In this document: piece after piece, positions 7,575-12,249 of the stretch
How the letters are laid out: each line of letters begins with the position of its first letter
How positions within the stretch are numbered: the first letter of the stretch is position 1
From: an uncultured Gammaproteobacteria bacterium
GTDB taxonomy: Bacteria > Pseudomonadota > Gammaproteobacteria > JAURND01
DNA: 64,000 bases
Assembly: GCA_963714975.1 (NCBI GenBank)
Contig: CAVQQD010000002.1
Location: 1,024,001-1,088,000 of the forward strand
Reading direction: 5' to 3'
Notes under the pieces: model-generated
What the model was told of the DNA's origin: nothing
Seen by the model: only the letters and a program-made list of their open reading frames with translations
Databases searched by the model: none
Made by a program: the position numbers and the translations under genes

Positions 7575-7587
7575 CTTAGGACACAAT

Positions 7588-7704
7588 CCCTTCTCCCCTT
7601 GGGGAGAAGGTGCCGAAGGCGGATGAGAGTCTTTGCAATGGCTTTCAGCGTTTTGAAACACCCTCTCCCGCCTTCGGCACTCTCTCCCGCAAGCGGGAGA
7701 GTGG
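7588..7704. repeat. Inverted doublet of family-A repeats between convergent genes (possible bidirectional terminator)
   Basis: cccttctccccttggggagaaggtgccgaaggcggatgag ... ccgccttcggcactctctcccgcaagcgggagag. Confidence 0.88.
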
Positions 7705-7751: not shown

Positions 7752-7973
7752 TTAAAGAAACACCTCTTCTAAGGTGGAAGCCTCAAAAATACGCTCACCC
7801 CACAACAATAAAGTTTCAGCACTTGCCTGTTGAATTCGCGCAAGATAATTAGCAGGTATATGAAGGAAACGACGCTGTAATTGGCGAATTAATAGCTTAG
7901 ATTCACCTTGCTGTATACCTTGTTTGATCCCCTTTTCAATACCAAGTCTCTCTGGAGTAGTAATATATCTCAT
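7752..7973 (-). CDS. Putative intragenic small C-terminal protein (RpnS-like), 73 aa
   Basis: In-frame ATG 7973 preceded by GAGGAGG (7982-7988) at an 8-nt spacing. Confidence 0.55.
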   Translation of the reverse strand: MRYITTPERLGIEKGIKQGIQQGESKLLIRQLQRRFLHIPANYLARIQQASAETLLLWGERIFEASTLEEVFL

Positions 7974-8714
7974 CTGTTTTTCCTCCTCGATGTTTTTTAT
8001 TGTTTGATTGTATATTGGTTCTTGCTCTTTCGGAAGAGCAATAAGCCAATCGATCAGAGTAAATAATTGAATAATATCGCGTTTAGTATAACCCTTTTTA
8101 TACAACTGACGAGTCAAAGCAGTCTTGGCATGTAAACGCGCTTCGCTATCCTGCCGTGTTTTCAGTGCCACTAATTGTGCCAATATCACCATGGCAAAAC
8201 GATTGTTCATGGCTTCTAGTTCTTGCCAGCGCTTTTGATAATCCAATATTTTTATAACTAAATAACGCACTTCCTGATAGGTTCCAAAACATGCTTCACG
8301 GTAATAATCAGTGCGCCAATCTGGATCGTTATCAATTAAAATAGCAATGCTAACAACGGGTAGATTCCAAAAATCAGAAATTCGATACCGATAAATCATC
8401 ATCCGACGCGGTAAGTTTCCTCTCTTAGGATCCCTTTCAACCTCAAGGTGACACAATATTAAAGTTTGTTTTCCATTTTTTCCATGGACTTTGATTAATT
8501 TATCTGCAATGCAATTACCAATTGCCGCATGACGTGTTATTTTACTTAATTCTTTATCAAGTGATTCCCAATTTTTGGACCAATCGATTTGCGTGGCAAT
8601 ATCCGGCAAGCAAAATTCCATAAAATCACGAAAATATAATCCTAAACCGTATTTCCAAGGACGATCAAAATCAGCCCGGGTATTCTTGTTTTTTGTTTTT
8701 AGCTCATGAGTCAT
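7752..8714 (-). CDS. Rpn-like PD-(D/E)XK nuclease/putative transposase with DUF4351-type C-terminus, copy 1
   Basis: DFDRPWK...IDW...LDKEL, ADKL...HLEV motifs; MRYITTPERLGIEKGIKQG repeat; LIRQLQRRF...LEEVF tail. Confidence 0.85.
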   Translation of the reverse strand: MTHELKTKNKNTRADFDRPWKYGLGLYFRDFMEFCLPDIATQIDWSKNWESLDKELSKITRHAAIGNCIADKLIKVHGKNGKQTLILCHLEVERDPKRGNLPRRMMIYRYRISDFWNLPVVSIAILIDNDPDWRTDYYREACFGTYQEVRYLVIKILDYQKRWQELEAMNNRFAMVILAQLVALKTRQDSEARLHAKTALTRQLYKKGYTKRDIIQLFTLIDWLIALPKEQEPIYNQTIKNIEEEKQMRYITTPERLGIEKGIKQGIQQGESKLLIRQLQRRFLHIPANYLARIQQASAETLLLWGERIFEASTLEEVFL

Positions 8715-8772
8715 GAACTCATATTAAAAGAAACAGCGGAATGCACAATACCGTAGTCCCGGAGTTTTTATA

Positions 8773-8809
8773 CCTTCTCCCCTTTTGGGGAGAAGGTGCC
8801 GAAGGCGGA
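8773..8809. repeat. Truncated family-A repeat at a deletion junction
   Basis: ccttctccccttttggggagaaggtgccgaaggcgga is fused directly to the duplicated module at 8810. Confidence 0.85.
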
Positions 8810-8825
8810 CGCTACCCTTGCCACT

Positions 8826-9029
8826 TTATCGACCCAACCTCACTCTTCTCCTCTCACATCCCAAATCGCCACAAAATGCTGTCCTACCACCCCACAATGG
8901 CTGCGAGGATTTAAAGCAGACAACATTCTGATTTGACAATGGAAATACCACGAACGATTGACACGTGAGAGAAAAATAATTGAAGCTGTTTTGCACGGAC
9001 GCAAGATGCGTTAAACTGACTGCAGCCAT
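8826..9029 (-). CDS. 67-aa small protein under putative antisense control, copy 1
   Basis: SD AGGAG then ATG 9029 (MAAVSLTHLASVQNSF...); same length and frame in both copies; sigma70-like promoter upstream. Confidence 0.5.
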   Translation of the reverse strand: MAAVSLTHLASVQNSFNYFSLTCQSFVVFPLSNQNVVCFKSSQPLWGGRTAFCGDLGCERRRVRLGR

Positions 9030-9098
9030 GGTGAATCTCCTTCTTAGATTCCAGTGGTTAGCGTGTGGCCAGGTGTTAGTGCACCTACCACACGCGCC
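9024..9098 (+). ncRNA. SymR-like cis-antisense RNA, copy 1
   Basis: -10 TAAACT (9012-9017) lies antisense to codons 5-6; the predicted RNA covers the ATG and SD and ends in hairpin gcgtgtgg..ggtg-ttagtg-cacc..ccacacgc. Confidence 0.55.
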
Positions 9099-9099
9099 T

Positions 9100-9128
9100 A
9101 TTATCATTAGTTTATTTTAAGCTGGCAA
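9100..9128 (-). promoter_or_regulatory. sigma70-like promoter TTGCCA-N17-GATAAT (also present in copy 2)
   Basis: -35 at 9128-9123 and -10 at 9105-9100, 17-bp spacer. Confidence 0.6.
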
Positions 9129-9173
9129 CTGTTTTTTTAAAAAATGTAACTCTCCAGAGGTCATCTAGTTACA

Positions 9174-9431
9174 TTAAAGAAACACTTCTTCTAAGGTGGA
9201 AACCTCAAAAATACGCTCACCCCACAACAATAAAGTTTCGGCACTTGCCTGTTGAATTCGCGCAAGATAATTAGCAGGTACATGGAGGAAACGACGCTGT
9301 AATTGGCGAATTAATAGATTAGATTCACCCCGCTGTATACCTTTCTTTATGCCTTTCTTTATGCCTTTCTGTATACCTTGTTTGATCCCCTGTTCAATGC
9401 CAAGTCTTTCTGGAGTAGTAATATATCTCAT
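9174..9431 (-). CDS. Putative intragenic RpnS-like protein, 85 aa
   Basis: In-frame ATG 9431 preceded by GAGGAG (9441-9446). Confidence 0.55.
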   Translation of the reverse strand: MRYITTPERLGIEQGIKQGIQKGIKKGIKKGIQRGESNLLIRQLQRRFLHVPANYLARIQQASAETLLLWGERIFEVSTLEEVFL

Positions 9432-10172
9432 GTGTTGTTTCTCCTCGATGTTTTTTATTGATTGATTGTATATTGGCTCTTGCTCTTTGGGAAGAGCAAT
9501 AAGCCAATCGATCAGAGTAAATAATTGCATAATATCGCGTTTAGTATAACCCTTTTTATACAACTGACGAGTCAAAGCAGTCTTGGCATGTAAACGCGCT
9601 TCGCTATTCTGCTGTGTTTTCAGTGCCACTAATTGTGCTAATATCACCGTGGCAAAACGATTGTTCATCACCTCAAGCTCTTGCCAACGCGTTTGATAAT
9701 CCAATATTTTTATAGCTAAATAACGCACTTCCTGATAGGTTCCAAAACATGCTTCACGGTAATAATCAGTGCGCCAATCTGGATCGTTATCAATTAAAAT
9801 AGCAATGCTAACAACGGGTAGATTCCAAAAATCAGAAATTCGATACCGATAAATCATCATCCGACGCGGTAAGTTTCCTCTCTTAGGATCCCTTTCAACC
9901 TCAAGGTGACACAATATTAAAGTTTGTTTTCCATTTTTTCCATGGACTTTGATTAATTTATCTGCAATGCAATTACCAATTGCGGCATGGCGTGTTATTT
10001 TATTTAATTCTTTATCGAGTGATTCCCAATTTTTGGACCAATCGATTTGCGTGGCAATATCCGGCAAGCAAAATTCCATAAAATCACGAAAATATAATCC
10101 TAAACCGTATTTCCAAGGACGATCAAAATCAGCCCGGGTATTCTTGTTTTTTGTTTTTAGCTCATGAGTCAT
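9174..10172 (-). CDS. Rpn-like nuclease with DUF4351-type C-terminus, copy 2
   Basis: Near-identical to 7752-8714; 12 extra residues from expansion of the GIxx repeat. Confidence 0.85.
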   Translation of the reverse strand: MTHELKTKNKNTRADFDRPWKYGLGLYFRDFMEFCLPDIATQIDWSKNWESLDKELNKITRHAAIGNCIADKLIKVHGKNGKQTLILCHLEVERDPKRGNLPRRMMIYRYRISDFWNLPVVSIAILIDNDPDWRTDYYREACFGTYQEVRYLAIKILDYQTRWQELEVMNNRFATVILAQLVALKTQQNSEARLHAKTALTRQLYKKGYTKRDIMQLFTLIDWLIALPKEQEPIYNQSIKNIEEKQHMRYITTPERLGIEQGIKQGIQKGIKKGIKKGIQRGESNLLIRQLQRRFLHVPANYLARIQQASAETLLLWGERIFEVSTLEEVFL

Positions 10173-10229
10173 GAACCCATATTAAAAGAAACAGAGGAAC
10201 GCACAATACCGTAGTCCCAGAGTTTTTAT

Positions 10230-10370
10230 CCCTTCTCCCCTTGGGGAGAAGGTGCCCCTTCGACAGGCTCAGGGCAGGCTGGCGGATGAGGGTGTTTAAA
10301 ATAGCTTAAAGCTACAACAGGACACCCTCATCCGGCCTGCGGCCACCTTCTCCCGCAAGCGGGAGAGGGG
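10230..10370. repeat. Inverted family-A doublet with a nested cccttcgacaggctcagggc motif
   Basis: Paralogous to 7588-7704, including the flank gatttccgtgccac(a)ccactctc. Confidence 0.88.
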
Positions 10371-10426
10371 ATTTCCGTGCCACCCACTCTCCTGCAGCAA
10401 TCCCTGCGGAAAAAGGGATTTGCAAG

Positions 10427-10828
10427 CTACTCCCAAAAATCCGTCTGCCCTTTTTGCACTCCTGCTAATAACCTCGCGCACAATTCATCGGTAAAAGGCT
10501 TATCAAACAGGCCATTGAGTTTTAGTGCCTTGGCTCGCGTATAACAGCTTTCCTCATGCACGGCATGGGCGGACAAGATGACAATCGGCACGTTCGCATT
10601 GCCACTTAAATGCTTACGCATAAGTTGGGCCAGATCGAGGCCATAGTAATCCGGGAGTCCAAGATCAAGTAAGACCAGGTCATAACGATTGGAAAATAAT
10701 TGAATGGCTTGGGTGCCATTCATAGCTAAATCGACTTGGCAGTTTGCTGCAGTGAAAATAGATTCGGCCGCTTTACTGGCCATTTTGTTATCCTCAACGG
10801 CGAGGACTCTGAATTGCTTGGTATTCAT
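10427..10828 (-). CDS. Single-domain response regulator (CheY-like receiver)
   Basis: VLAVEDN, LLDLGLPD, ILSAH and FDKPF receiver motifs. Confidence 0.92.
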   Translation of the reverse strand: MNTKQFRVLAVEDNKMASKAAESIFTAANCQVDLAMNGTQAIQLFSNRYDLVLLDLGLPDYYGLDLAQLMRKHLSGNANVPIVILSAHAVHEESCYTRAKALKLNGLFDKPFTDELCARLLAGVQKGQTDFWE

Positions 10829-10964
10829 GATGGTTTGCTCCTATTGTTATCGTTAAAATGGATTCATCAAACCAAGAAATCTTAAGGAGTAATAGTGGCA
10901 GAGATTAAAGAGATGACAGGGCAGGAAATCAAATCGCTGCCCCGCCACCGCTACCCCTGCCACT

Positions 10965-11168
10965 TTATCGACCCAACCTCACTAGCCTCCTCCCACATCC
11001 CAAATCGCCACAAAATGCTGCCCTACCACCCCACAATGGCTGCGAGGATTTAAAGCAGACAACATTCTGATTTGACAATGGAAATACCACGAACGATTGA
11101 CACGTGAGAGAAAAATAATTGAAGCTGTTTTGCACGGACGCAAGATGCGTTAAACTGACTGCAGCCAT
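10965..11168 (-). CDS. 67-aa small protein under putative antisense control, copy 2
   Basis: SD AGGAG then ATG 11168; differs from copy 1 by 3 residues. Confidence 0.5.
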   Translation of the reverse strand: MAAVSLTHLASVQNSFNYFSLTCQSFVVFPLSNQNVVCFKSSQPLWGGRAAFCGDLGCGRRLVRLGR

Positions 11169-11237
11169 GGTGAATCTCCTTGTTAGATTCCAGTGGTTAG
11201 CGTGTGGACCAGGTGTTGGAGCACCTACCACACGCGC
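11163..11237 (+). ncRNA. SymR-like cis-antisense RNA, copy 2
   Basis: TAAACT at 11151-11156; same two hairpins as copy 1 with changed loops. Confidence 0.55.
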
Positions 11238-11295
11238 CTATTATCATCAGTTTATTTTAATCTGGCAACTGCTTTTTAAAAAAAATTACTATCAC

Positions 11296-12249
11296 ATGTT
11301 AGCAACAGACAAAATTTTTCCAGTAGTTATTTTATGCACCTCAGGATTTGGCTTACTTGCTCCCCAGCTTTTTCTTTGGGCAAAACCCCATATTCCAGTT
11401 TTTTTAGGAATCATTATGTTTGCCATTGGCTTAACTTTAGAAGCTGGTGATTTTAAACAAACATGGAATTTACGTGCGCAAATAGTCATCATCATTATTT
11501 TAAAATATGCATTACTGCCAATGGTAGCCTTTTGTTTGGCAAAATTATTTGGATTAACTACAGAACAATATTTGGGTCTATTAATAGTGGCTAGCTGCCC
11601 AGGAGGAACTGCTGCTGCTGTTATGACCTACCTAGCCCGGGCGAATACCGCGTTAACTGTGGTACTAACTTTTTTATCCACAATAATCTCTCCTTTGATG
11701 ACACCATTGCTTATATTTTTGTTTGTTCACCAAGAAATTATAGTGCCATGGCAAAATATGATGAACACTATCTTCTGGGTCATGTTTTTCCCGTTGATGG
11801 ATGGCCTAATCCTCAGAAAAATAATAGGCACGAAAATAGGGGCTATTAAATCGTTCTTACCTATCCTGGCTATGCTATGTATCGCAATTATCATTGGCTG
11901 TGTCATTGCCCTTAACCGTCAAATGCTATTAGCACTTCCTGTGGCTGCAGGAGCAGCGGTGTTAAGCACCCATCTCTGCGGCTTAATTTTGGGCTATCTA
12001 ATAGCTAAATACATTTTTTGCTGGCACAAAAGTAATTGCCAAGCTACAGCATTTGAATTTGGTATGCAAGATTCTGGAATGGCGGTAATGCTAGCAACGA
12101 AATTTTTTAGTAATGCAGTGGCATTATGTGCTAGCTTGTATAGTCTCATCCAGAATCTATTAGGACCCATAGTCGCACGGTATTTTTCAATGCATAACAA
12201 TAAAGTAGGTTCGGCTTATCCCTTCTCCCGTAAGCGGAAGAAGGGATAA
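11296..12249 (+). CDS. Bile acid:sodium symporter (BASS) family transporter
   Basis: LGIIMFAIGLTL, SCPGGTAA and EFGMQDSG motifs; start placed at ATG 11296. Confidence 0.92.
   Translation: MLATDKIFPVVILCTSGFGLLAPQLFLWAKPHIPVFLGIIMFAIGLTLEAGDFKQTWNLRAQIVIIIILKYALLPMVAFCLAKLFGLTTEQYLGLLIVASCPGGTAAAVMTYLARANTALTVVLTFLSTIISPLMTPLLIFLFVHQEIIVPWQNMMNTIFWVMFFPLMDGLILRKIIGTKIGAIKSFLPILAMLCIAIIIGCVIALNRQMLLALPVAAGAAVLSTHLCGLILGYLIAKYIFCWHKSNCQATAFEFGMQDSGMAVMLATKFFSNAVALCASLYSLIQNLLGPIVARYFSMHNNKVGSAYPFSRKRKKG
12219..12245. repeat. Family-A hairpin overlapping the BASS 3' end
   Basis: cccttctcccgtaagcggaagaaggg encodes PFSRKRKKG before the stop. Confidence 0.75.

Follow-up and report, generated by a model that had tools for sequence, protein, structure and literature searches.

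Control of a translation start site by a cis-antisense RNA is in itself known, and several described systems resemble in part the one reported here. In hok/sok, a type I toxin mRNA folds back on itself through tac–fbi pairing; the antisense RNAs of plasmid copy-number control owe their specificity to their loops; and in leaders with a translated open reading frame (ORF), ribosome occupancy controls the genes downstream (by attenuation, Rho-dependent polarity or polarity induced by small RNAs). SymR of Escherichia coli, according to the parts of the original report drawn on here, affects translation more than the level or decay of the symE mRNA (Kawano, Aravind and Storz, 2007; PMC1891008). The present analysis concerns a duplicated module within a 64,000-nt stretch of DNA (hereafter the window; contig CAVQQD010000002.1, positions 1,024,001 to 1,088,000, assembly GCA_963714975.1) of an uncultured gammaproteobacterium of the lineage JAURND01. 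We show by comparative sequence analysis that each copy carries, opposite the start of a leader ORF, the predicted gene of an RNA of the SymR kind, and that the leader regularly stands ahead of a single-domain response-regulator receiver gene. We lean towards a mechanism in which this SymR-family antisense RNA would block ribosome entry on a translated leader, and the receiver gene would be expressed only when the leader is translated. The long translated leader of non-coding-like character, the receiver payload and the multi-copy family with diversified loops are new here. In the openly licensed (Creative Commons) literature of PMC and bioRxiv we found neither a SymR-like family nor a system that joins an antisense RNA, a leader peptide and a single-domain response regulator, and the passages available from Fozo et al. 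(2010; PMC2887945) and from T1TAdb (PMC8594479) mention SymR merely in passing.

The two copies of about 335 bp that a sequence-only reading of the window had described are indeed present, at 8810–9144 and 10949–11284, and are 97% identical between 8810–9068 and 10949–11207 and 92% identical between 9069–9144 and 11209–11284. Each carries on the minus strand a promoter-like TTGCCA-N17-GATAAT (9100–9128 in copy 1, 11240–11268 in copy 2), then a 5′ leader hairpin, a second hairpin whose GAATCT/AGATTC stem encloses the Shine–Dalgarno (SD) sequence, and the ATG of a 67-codon ORF (8826–9029 with the ATG at 9029, and 10965–11168 with the ATG at 11168, both minus strand), all as that reading had it. 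In a scan for promoter-like sites these two promoters are the best in 8600–11400 (10 of 12 consensus matches), and their design is kept in all ten long-leader copies of the genome as well as in relatives. The first ~75 nt of the predicted sense transcript would hold the 5′ hairpin and, after it, the second hairpin, in which the SD sequence is half-buried.

Opposite this region, on the plus strand, lie the predicted SymR-family RNAs, at 9024–9102 (copy 1) and 11163–11242 (copy 2), hairpin 1 facing the SD sequence and start codon and hairpin 2 the 5′ leader. The Rfam symR model matches both over its full length (model positions 1–77), at 9024–9098 (32.9 bits, E 0.0016) and 11163–11238 (32.3 bits, E 0.0021). 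In the whole genome (2.56 Mb in three contigs, C1–C3; genome G000 below) all matches to this model at E < 1 are module copies (34.1, 32.3 and 31.0 bits; E 1.1e-4 to 6.7e-4). Five of the nine species-level genomes that make up the order in GTDB, all of one family, have a match at E ≤ 0.01 (best 44.8 bits), and among 14 control genomes, which include E. coli, E. coli alone does. The search also succeeds in the other direction: a covariance model (R1) made from 17 sequences of the order, with E. coli kept out of the seed, scores 74.7 and 74.2 bits at the two window copies and finds the annotated E. coli symR (L024:1336–1416; 47.8 bits, E 1.2e-8 in 105 kb searched), its match beginning at the annotated first base. 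The E. coli symE coding sequence ends at 4579840 and the first base of symR is 4579835, placing the 5′ end of the RNA opposite the third base of codon 2, and the register of RNA to start codon is identical here. The alignment shows a 5′ AGYCAU, a linker UGUGRUUAGYG, the loop-proximal part of hairpin 2 and a 3′ CGCGC common to E. coli symR and these RNAs. With the identical register, the recovery of the real symR by R1 and the covariation of the stems described below, the SymR-like cis-antisense layout proposed by the sequence-only reading is well founded, and we regard the RNA, on this comparative evidence, as a new member of the SymR kind that scores below threshold.

The correspondence with symE/symR extends to the arrangement as a whole: an RNA of ~77 nt with two hairpins lies opposite the 5′ untranslated region (UTR), the SD sequence and codons 1 and 2 of the sense gene; its promoter is embedded in the sense ORF, with the −10 box 6–7 nt before the RNA start; and linker and 3′-hairpin sequence are common, the covariance models detecting each other. 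The modules depart from symE/symR in an RNA score below the Rfam gathering score, a sense ORF other than SymE and the lack of a LexA-box-like site. As had been stated from the letters alone, the ORF lacks a SymE motif: Pfam returns no family for it, and a six-frame search of the whole genome with the SymE family (PF08845) has its best hit (E 0.118) away from the modules. No match to a LexA box (consensus CTGT-N8-ACAG, with ≤ 1 mismatch) occurs within 8800–11300, and the 11 matches in the whole window are fewer than chance predicts. A further contrast to symE/symR is that the sense strand here encodes a non-conserved leader ORF, behind which come a long hairpin and a receiver gene, and that the genome has 14 copies, with diversified loops.

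The predicted structure belongs to the antisense strand. In an alignment of 35 rows (34 copies from the order and E. coli symR, fitted to the model), 98.2% of the cells pair and 15 of the 19 pairs are changed on both sides, a level of pairing and covariation reached by 0 of 500 shuffles, controls slid along the alignment pairing at 33–46%; the stem covariation on which the original proposal had been staked is present. In the modelled pairs G.U outnumbers A.C by 64 cells to 5, and in all 35 rows the antisense strand has a lower folding energy than its complement, 12 kcal/mol lower on average. These figures bear directly on the alternative that the module is a sense-only structured leader, for instance a thermometer or a protein-binding site, with no functional antisense RNA and a likeness to SymR that is convergent. 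Such a leader would accord with the symR score under the Rfam cut-off and with the sense hairpins of family A (the six closest copies in the genome), which are almost as stable as their antisense counterparts (−24 to −26 against −27 to −29 kcal/mol, a strand difference of just 3–7 kcal/mol). It is contradicted by the excess of G.U over A.C cells, by the uniform strand preference across the alignment and by the reciprocal detection of E. coli symR, and also by the antisense promoter, so that we consider it quite unlikely.

This promoter (TTTTGC-N17-TAAACT in copy 1), on the plus strand, lies within codons 5–14 of the leader ORF, at 8989–9017 in copy 1 and 11128–11156 in copy 2, and its TAAACT (9012–9017 and 11151–11156, the box that had been noticed from the sequence) sits 6 nt ahead of the predicted 5′ end of the RNA in both copies. 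In 44 of 45 cassettes a TAnnnT box precedes the RNA 5′ end by 11–13 nt, at a fixed distance and within first ORFs that differ widely in length and sequence, which a sense-only leader would not explain; the sole cassette without it (G002 L033:393–474, also L020) has inserted DNA exactly at the start codon. A T-rich −35 region lies 17 nt further upstream, with T at −35 and −34 in 36 of the 45. The antisense promoter embedded in the sense ORF is, as judged from these alignments, conserved. The first codons of these first ORFs look alike (M-A-x-x-S/T-L) because the antisense −10 box is kept inside them.

The leader ORF appears to be held open while its peptide is free to drift. In the long-leader comparisons (17 leaders from five genomes, 15 of them intact) the frame that starts with ATG, or GTG, is open for 51–78 codons in 17 of 17, the other two frames having 1–8 stops each; in dinucleotide-preserving shuffles the probability of an open frame is 0.06–0.20 per lineage. 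Moreover, in all 15 intact leaders the ORF ends within the 5′ arm of the long hairpin or immediately ahead of it. An ORF open in all lineages is also what would be seen if the module were a type I toxin–antitoxin system, its 67-aa peptide a toxin held down by the SymR-like RNA and the receiver gene a mere neighbour, and to this can be added, at the level of sequence, the symE/symR layout with an antisense RNA over the translation start, a fold-back of the sense RNA that resembles type I toxin mRNAs, and copies that are multiple and dispersed. The pattern of substitution speaks against such a toxin. No excess at third positions is found in any of eight comparisons, the substitutions at codon positions 1:2:3 being 7:10:9 within family A, 2:9:4 for A1 versus A6, 18:16:16 for A1 versus B1 (first 45 codons), 3:8:4 for B1 versus B2, 16:10:9 for B1 versus B4 (B denoting a second leader family of the genome), and, for pairs of leaders in two other genomes, 8:10:12 (G002a versus G002b), 15:11:12 (G005a versus G005b) and 10:15:14 (G005c versus G005d). 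Between B1 and B4 a 1-nt deletion at ORF nt 54 is compensated by a 1-nt insertion at nt 102, and the 16 codons between the two sites, conserved as nucleotides, fall in different frames; G005a and G005b likewise differ by compensated single-base indels. Conservation of the frame, which had been set as a check, thus holds for the openness of the ORF and fails for its reading, given that B1 and B4 translate the same nucleotides differently.

Neither does the peptide resemble a known toxin. Pfam, NCBIfam and PADLOC hold no family for the 67-codon ORF, and in 16 of 17 ORFs all 19-residue Kyte–Doolittle windows stay below 1.6, which argues against a membrane-helix-like segment. The same receiver gene, moreover, follows at a fixed distance in 8 of 10 copies, with no promoter-like site between, a regularity that speaks against a mere neighbour. 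We therefore consider a type I toxin–antitoxin system unlikely, and the new toxin payload that had been proposed is not upheld. The module does share with hok/sok and with aapA1/IsoA1 of Helicobacter pylori, the latter as far as the consulted sections of its report go (PMC5416894), a cis-antisense RNA over the translation start and a sense RNA with downstream elements able to pair with the start region. Unlike in those systems, there is no conserved or hydrophobic peptide here, the transcript seems to continue into a regulatory gene, and the fold-back is partly supported only.

The ORF looks translated, by its sequence, and does not look like a conserved protein or toxin; in our reading it would be kept for its translation rather than for its product. 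In this it comes close to translated-leader systems, with which it shares the open ORF, a stop at a fixed structure, a drifting peptide and a candidate regulated gene downstream. It differs from them in the proposed cis-antisense gate on ribosome entry and in the unusual length of the leader (67–78 codons).

The downstream gene is regular. R1 finds 14 RNA genes in the genome, ten of them heading a long leader. Six of the ten are the full copies of family A (89–100% identity), and five of the six run on into the long hairpin, a spacer and a gene for a 133-aa single-domain receiver; the four copies of family B are ~62% identical to A over the ORF, three being followed by a receiver gene of the 142-aa class and one being cut by a tnpB-like insertion. 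A receiver (REC) paralogue, of 133–142 aa, lies 335–447 nt from the RNA gene at 8 of the 10 long leaders, and these eight receiver genes are the signalling genes found behind leaders in this genome. In the window the receiver gene occupies 10427–10828 (minus strand) behind copy 2; its 133-aa protein matches PF00072 at residues 8–115 (61.2 bits against a cut-off of 30.2) and has this domain alone. Between the leader of copy 2 and the receiver gene a simple scan of the minus strand shows nothing promoter-like or terminator-like, and the leader ahead of receiver genes is 410–530 nt long. Of the earlier suggestion that the module gates the downstream receiver gene or the Rpn-like (rpn) nuclease gene, the former part is favoured by this regularity, whereas the latter depends on one rearranged copy. 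Some details of individual loci may be recorded here. In the interrupted family-B leader (C1:103938–104024; L009) the ORF is cut by an IS200/IS605-type tnpB-like ORF and no receiver gene lies behind it; the spacers of copies A5 and A6 hold an extra palindromic insert of ~100 nt between long hairpin and receiver gene; and at the A5 locus (L005; C3:640935–641225) a short ORF that looks GIY-YIG-like by eye and fragments of Rpn-like genes follow the receiver gene.

We suggest the following mechanism, in which we infer from the arrangement that each strand is transcribed, that the antisense RNA represses and that the leader is coupled to the receiver gene. A sigma-70-type promoter would start the sense leader transcript, which would extend past the long hairpin and into the receiver gene, while the promoter in codons 5–14 of the ORF would give an RNA of ~75–80 nt with two hairpins, fully complementary to the 5′ UTR, the SD sequence and the first two codons. 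This RNA would pair with the leader via its variable loops and keep ribosomes from entering the leader ORF, in the manner of SymR on symE. A leader devoid of ribosomes would stay folded, by way of an anti-start helix involving codons 42–47, the long hairpin and, in this genome, a closure between the 5′ and 3′ parts of the leader; the folded message would be exposed to premature termination or decay, and the receiver gene would be off. Ribosomes that translate the leader ORF up to its stop at the foot of the hairpin would hold the message open. The hypervariable loops would provide each paralogue with its own cognate RNA. The description of the unit as an antisense-gated leader module, offered on first inspection, fits this proposal as well.

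The folded state invoked here draws on three elements of differing strength. The long hairpin, at 10894–10964 (minus strand) just past the leader-ORF stop codon (10965–10967), has an energy of −50.6 kcal/mol, and those of the 15 intact leaders range from −42 to −74 kcal/mol. The anti-start element (8888–8905, minus strand; ORF nt 125–142), recognized in a duplex search, is complementary to the start-codon region; in 11 of 17 leaders the start region has its best duplex with codons 42–44 (≤ 8 of 200 shuffles equal), an ungapped helix of 6–12 bp across the start codon forms at ORF nt 132–141 in 14 of 17, and the helix shows paired changes (AUCAUG/CAUGAU versus AUUAUG/CAUAAU, and one GUG start that pairs with CAC). 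A consensus fold of 12 leaders by RNAalifold contains a weak 5-bp helix from linker to ORF end instead of the anti-start helix. The third element, a tentative one, lies 3′ of the long hairpin (10860–10881, minus strand) and is complementary to the 5′ linker and SD sequence; this closure uses the same site in four of five family-A copies (z-scores −0.7 to −2.4) and has z-scores of −3.6, −3.9 and −0.8 in family B. A relay model, in which binding of the antisense RNA would free a 3′ element that hides the SD sequence of the receiver gene, is not supported. With the first ~75 nt blocked, the accessibility of that SD sequence showed no consistent change in eight leaders (0.47 to 0.51, 0.20 to 0.19, 0.48 to 0.42 and 0.18 to 0.18 in four; 0.18 to 0.17, 0.40 to 0.36, 0.35 to 0.31 and 0.33 to 0.33 in the others).

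Several points weigh against the proposed mechanism. The symR scores of the window copies (32.9 and 32.3 bits) are below the Rfam gathering score of 61 bits (RF01809), so that the run of this model on both RNA sites gave full-length matches that fall under the family threshold; a scan of the window in gathering mode reports a tRNA alone and no symR. A canonical terminator was not found after the antisense RNA. The anti-start helix is no better than in shuffles in 6 of 17 leaders and is missing from the minimum-energy folds, and the 5′–3′ closure was not found in seven leaders of relatives, being confined to this genome. Since the SD accessibilities, in what is a simple thermodynamic test, are inconsistent, the link from leader to receiver is left without a modelled mechanism. 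Finally, the compared sequences are those of relatives, and counts across rows overstate their independence.

Differences between the RNA copies are concentrated in the loops. In family A (six copies), variable columns number 10 of 17 in the hairpin loops and 3 of 38 in the stems, and the ORF has 26 variable sites of 201 (Fisher p 1.2e-4 for loops versus stems and 3.9e-5 for loops versus ORF), which confirms and extends the statement, made from the two window copies, that differences fall in loops while stems are kept. This is the pattern expected if the loops set partner specificity. Conserved stems and hypervariable loops among paralogues recall the RNAs of plasmid copy-number control, as if loop–loop contacts chose the partner; unlike for those RNAs, no replication function is found nearby, and the match to the Plasmid_R1162 RNA (RF00043) lies on the opposite, minus strand and is not significant (25.6 bits, E 0.23), for which reason it was rejected.

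Concentration of variation in the loops is likewise at odds with the idea that the module is a decaying repeat or mobile-element remnant, functionless now and spread by recombination near Rpn-like genes. Copies that are truncated or interrupted (A1 by a repetitive extragenic palindromic (REP) element, B3 by the tnpB-like insertion, B2 by a frameshift), and the REP elements and Rpn-like genes that surround the copies, would suit a remnant. Promoters, stems, open ORF, stop position and long hairpin are, however, kept between families A and B despite their ~62% identity and in four other genomes, and we consider a functionless remnant very improbable. As a wider proposal, which we put forward tentatively and hold to be possible rather than probable, the module may represent an undescribed portable riboregulatory unit, made of a SymR-family RNA with paralogue-specific loops, a long leader ORF that must be translated although its peptide is meaningless, and copies of the antisense sequence within the leader itself (the anti-start element and, in this genome, the 3′ closure element) competing for the one start region, that would serve as a switch for signalling genes and would have been amplified together with Rpn-like genes.

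Two Rpn-like genes lie near the modules on the minus strand, one of 320 aa (7752–8714) downstream of the truncated copy 1 and one of 332 aa (9174–10172) downstream of the receiver gene of copy 2. Both proteins pass a Pfam cut-off only with the C-terminal DUF4351 (33.0 and 31.7 against 25); with the NCBIfam model TIGR01784 (cut-off 52.1 bits) the 332-aa protein scores 16.5 bits and the 320-aa protein has no match, and PADLOC gives a weak C-terminal match to a 'putative invertase', the matches of the receiver being likewise weak. By tblastn the Rpn-like family has nine loci in the genome, six of them ≤ 1 kb from a long-leader copy (A1, A2, A5 with two fragments, A6 and B4), and in the related genome G008 an Rpn-like gene lies between two cassette copies. 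Proximity within the window had led to the view of a two-layer defence cassette, in which the Rpn-like nuclease genes would be under the gate of the antisense module and the receiver gene would perhaps be a first layer; the loci just listed are in its favour. The promoter of copy 1 now faces an Rpn-like gene, and Rpn proteins are described as toxic anti-phage nucleases in the portions consulted of a preprint (bioRxiv 10.1101/2023.05.02.539157), both of which would favour this view.

The details of the locus point elsewhere. The homology of copy 1 ends at 8810/8811, within the 5′ arm of the long hairpin, where the 3′ part of the leader is replaced by a REP-type palindrome (8773–8810) and by the sequence upstream of an Rpn-like gene; since the copy breaks off in its 3′ hairpin and continues as a REP element, gating of rpn would rest on a single rearranged copy, a one-off among ten. 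Behind copy 2 the gap of 254 nt between receiver gene and rpn is filled by REP palindromes. Five of the ten leaders have no Rpn-like gene within 39 kb, the same leader design precedes unrelated genes in relatives, PADLOC offers no defence family at useful scores for the receiver gene or the ORF, and the Rpn-like genes miss the cut-off of the Rpn family. The association of leaders with Rpn-like genes is real, although several cases descend from one leader–receiver–rpn unit; we read it as co-amplification or recombination nearby and not as demonstrated co-regulation. A defence cassette is thus very unlikely, and nothing found speaks for the two-layer scheme; whether as a toxin or as a defence cassette, the module is unlikely to act in the way first imagined, and the antisense-gated leader ahead of a receiver gene is the reading that we retain.

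Cassettes of this kind are not restricted to the window or to receiver genes. In the order R1 finds 34 copies in five of nine genomes (14 in this genome and 7, 6, 4 and 3 in the others), and in a sample of the class with one genome per family it finds matches in 14 of 151 genomes, including 12 of the 149 from other families (32–57 bits). BLASTN of the 341-bp module gave no match in the eight other genomes of the family, the relatives being found by covariance models only, and a metagenome scan with the exact two-motif leader pattern returned 0 matches. The cassettes of the class sample head many different first ORFs, several near genes that look by eye integrase-, ribbon–helix–helix (RHH)- or antitoxin-like. 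SymR has been catalogued as a single enterobacterial antitoxin RNA, and the same design, with its embedded promoter, is present in multiple copies in an uncultured order; considering its occurrence in 12 of 149 sampled other families, the SymR-type design appears to be a portable start-site gate placed before many first genes. Signalling proteins would be, by inference, a third kind of target besides toxins and mobile-element genes. Two ideas that can be tested follow, namely that the diversified loops insulate paralogous antisense pairs and that a non-coding-like ORF may be retained purely for the transit of ribosomes. RNA genes and leader ORFs of this sort escape standard annotation pipelines.

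The payloads seen elsewhere were recorded as follows. Three further SymR-type cassettes of this genome (C2:66589–66666, C2:117635–117711 and C2:568462–568540; L055, L053 and L054) head a conserved 152-aa ORF, a 153-aa look-alike of which in genome G003 has no Pfam family; a fourth (C1:80780–80858) heads a broken gene of ~96 aa, with an RHH-like gene upstream. In sister genera (L038 and L043 in G002, L039 in G003, L042 and L049 in G005) the same long-leader design, with cassette, a non-conserved ORF of ~70 codons and long hairpin, precedes a protein of ~255 aa, behind which stands an ORF that is PAS-like by eye; one copy of the ~255-aa protein was compared with NCBIfam and had no match, and for the first genes of relatives Pfam and NCBIfam hold no family. 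The commonest cassette payload in relatives is a pair of genes, for a protein of ~96 aa (helical-looking by eye) and then one of ~101 aa (L026, L025, L031 and L029 in G003, G005 and G002); an RHH-like gene of 73–80 aa lies upstream, and the layout recalls the control regions of mobile elements.

Around the two copies, long GC-rich REP-type palindromes occupy 7585–7703, 8773–8810 and 10190–10420, and Rfam matches to miRNA families at 7585–7703 (34 bits, E 3.7e-4) were dismissed as REP palindrome. Beside copy 2, on the plus strand at 11296–12249, lies a gene for a transporter of the bile-acid/sodium symporter family (PF01758, 119 bits), and its annotated long ORF start at 11119, which overlaps the antisense RNA, is probably wrong.

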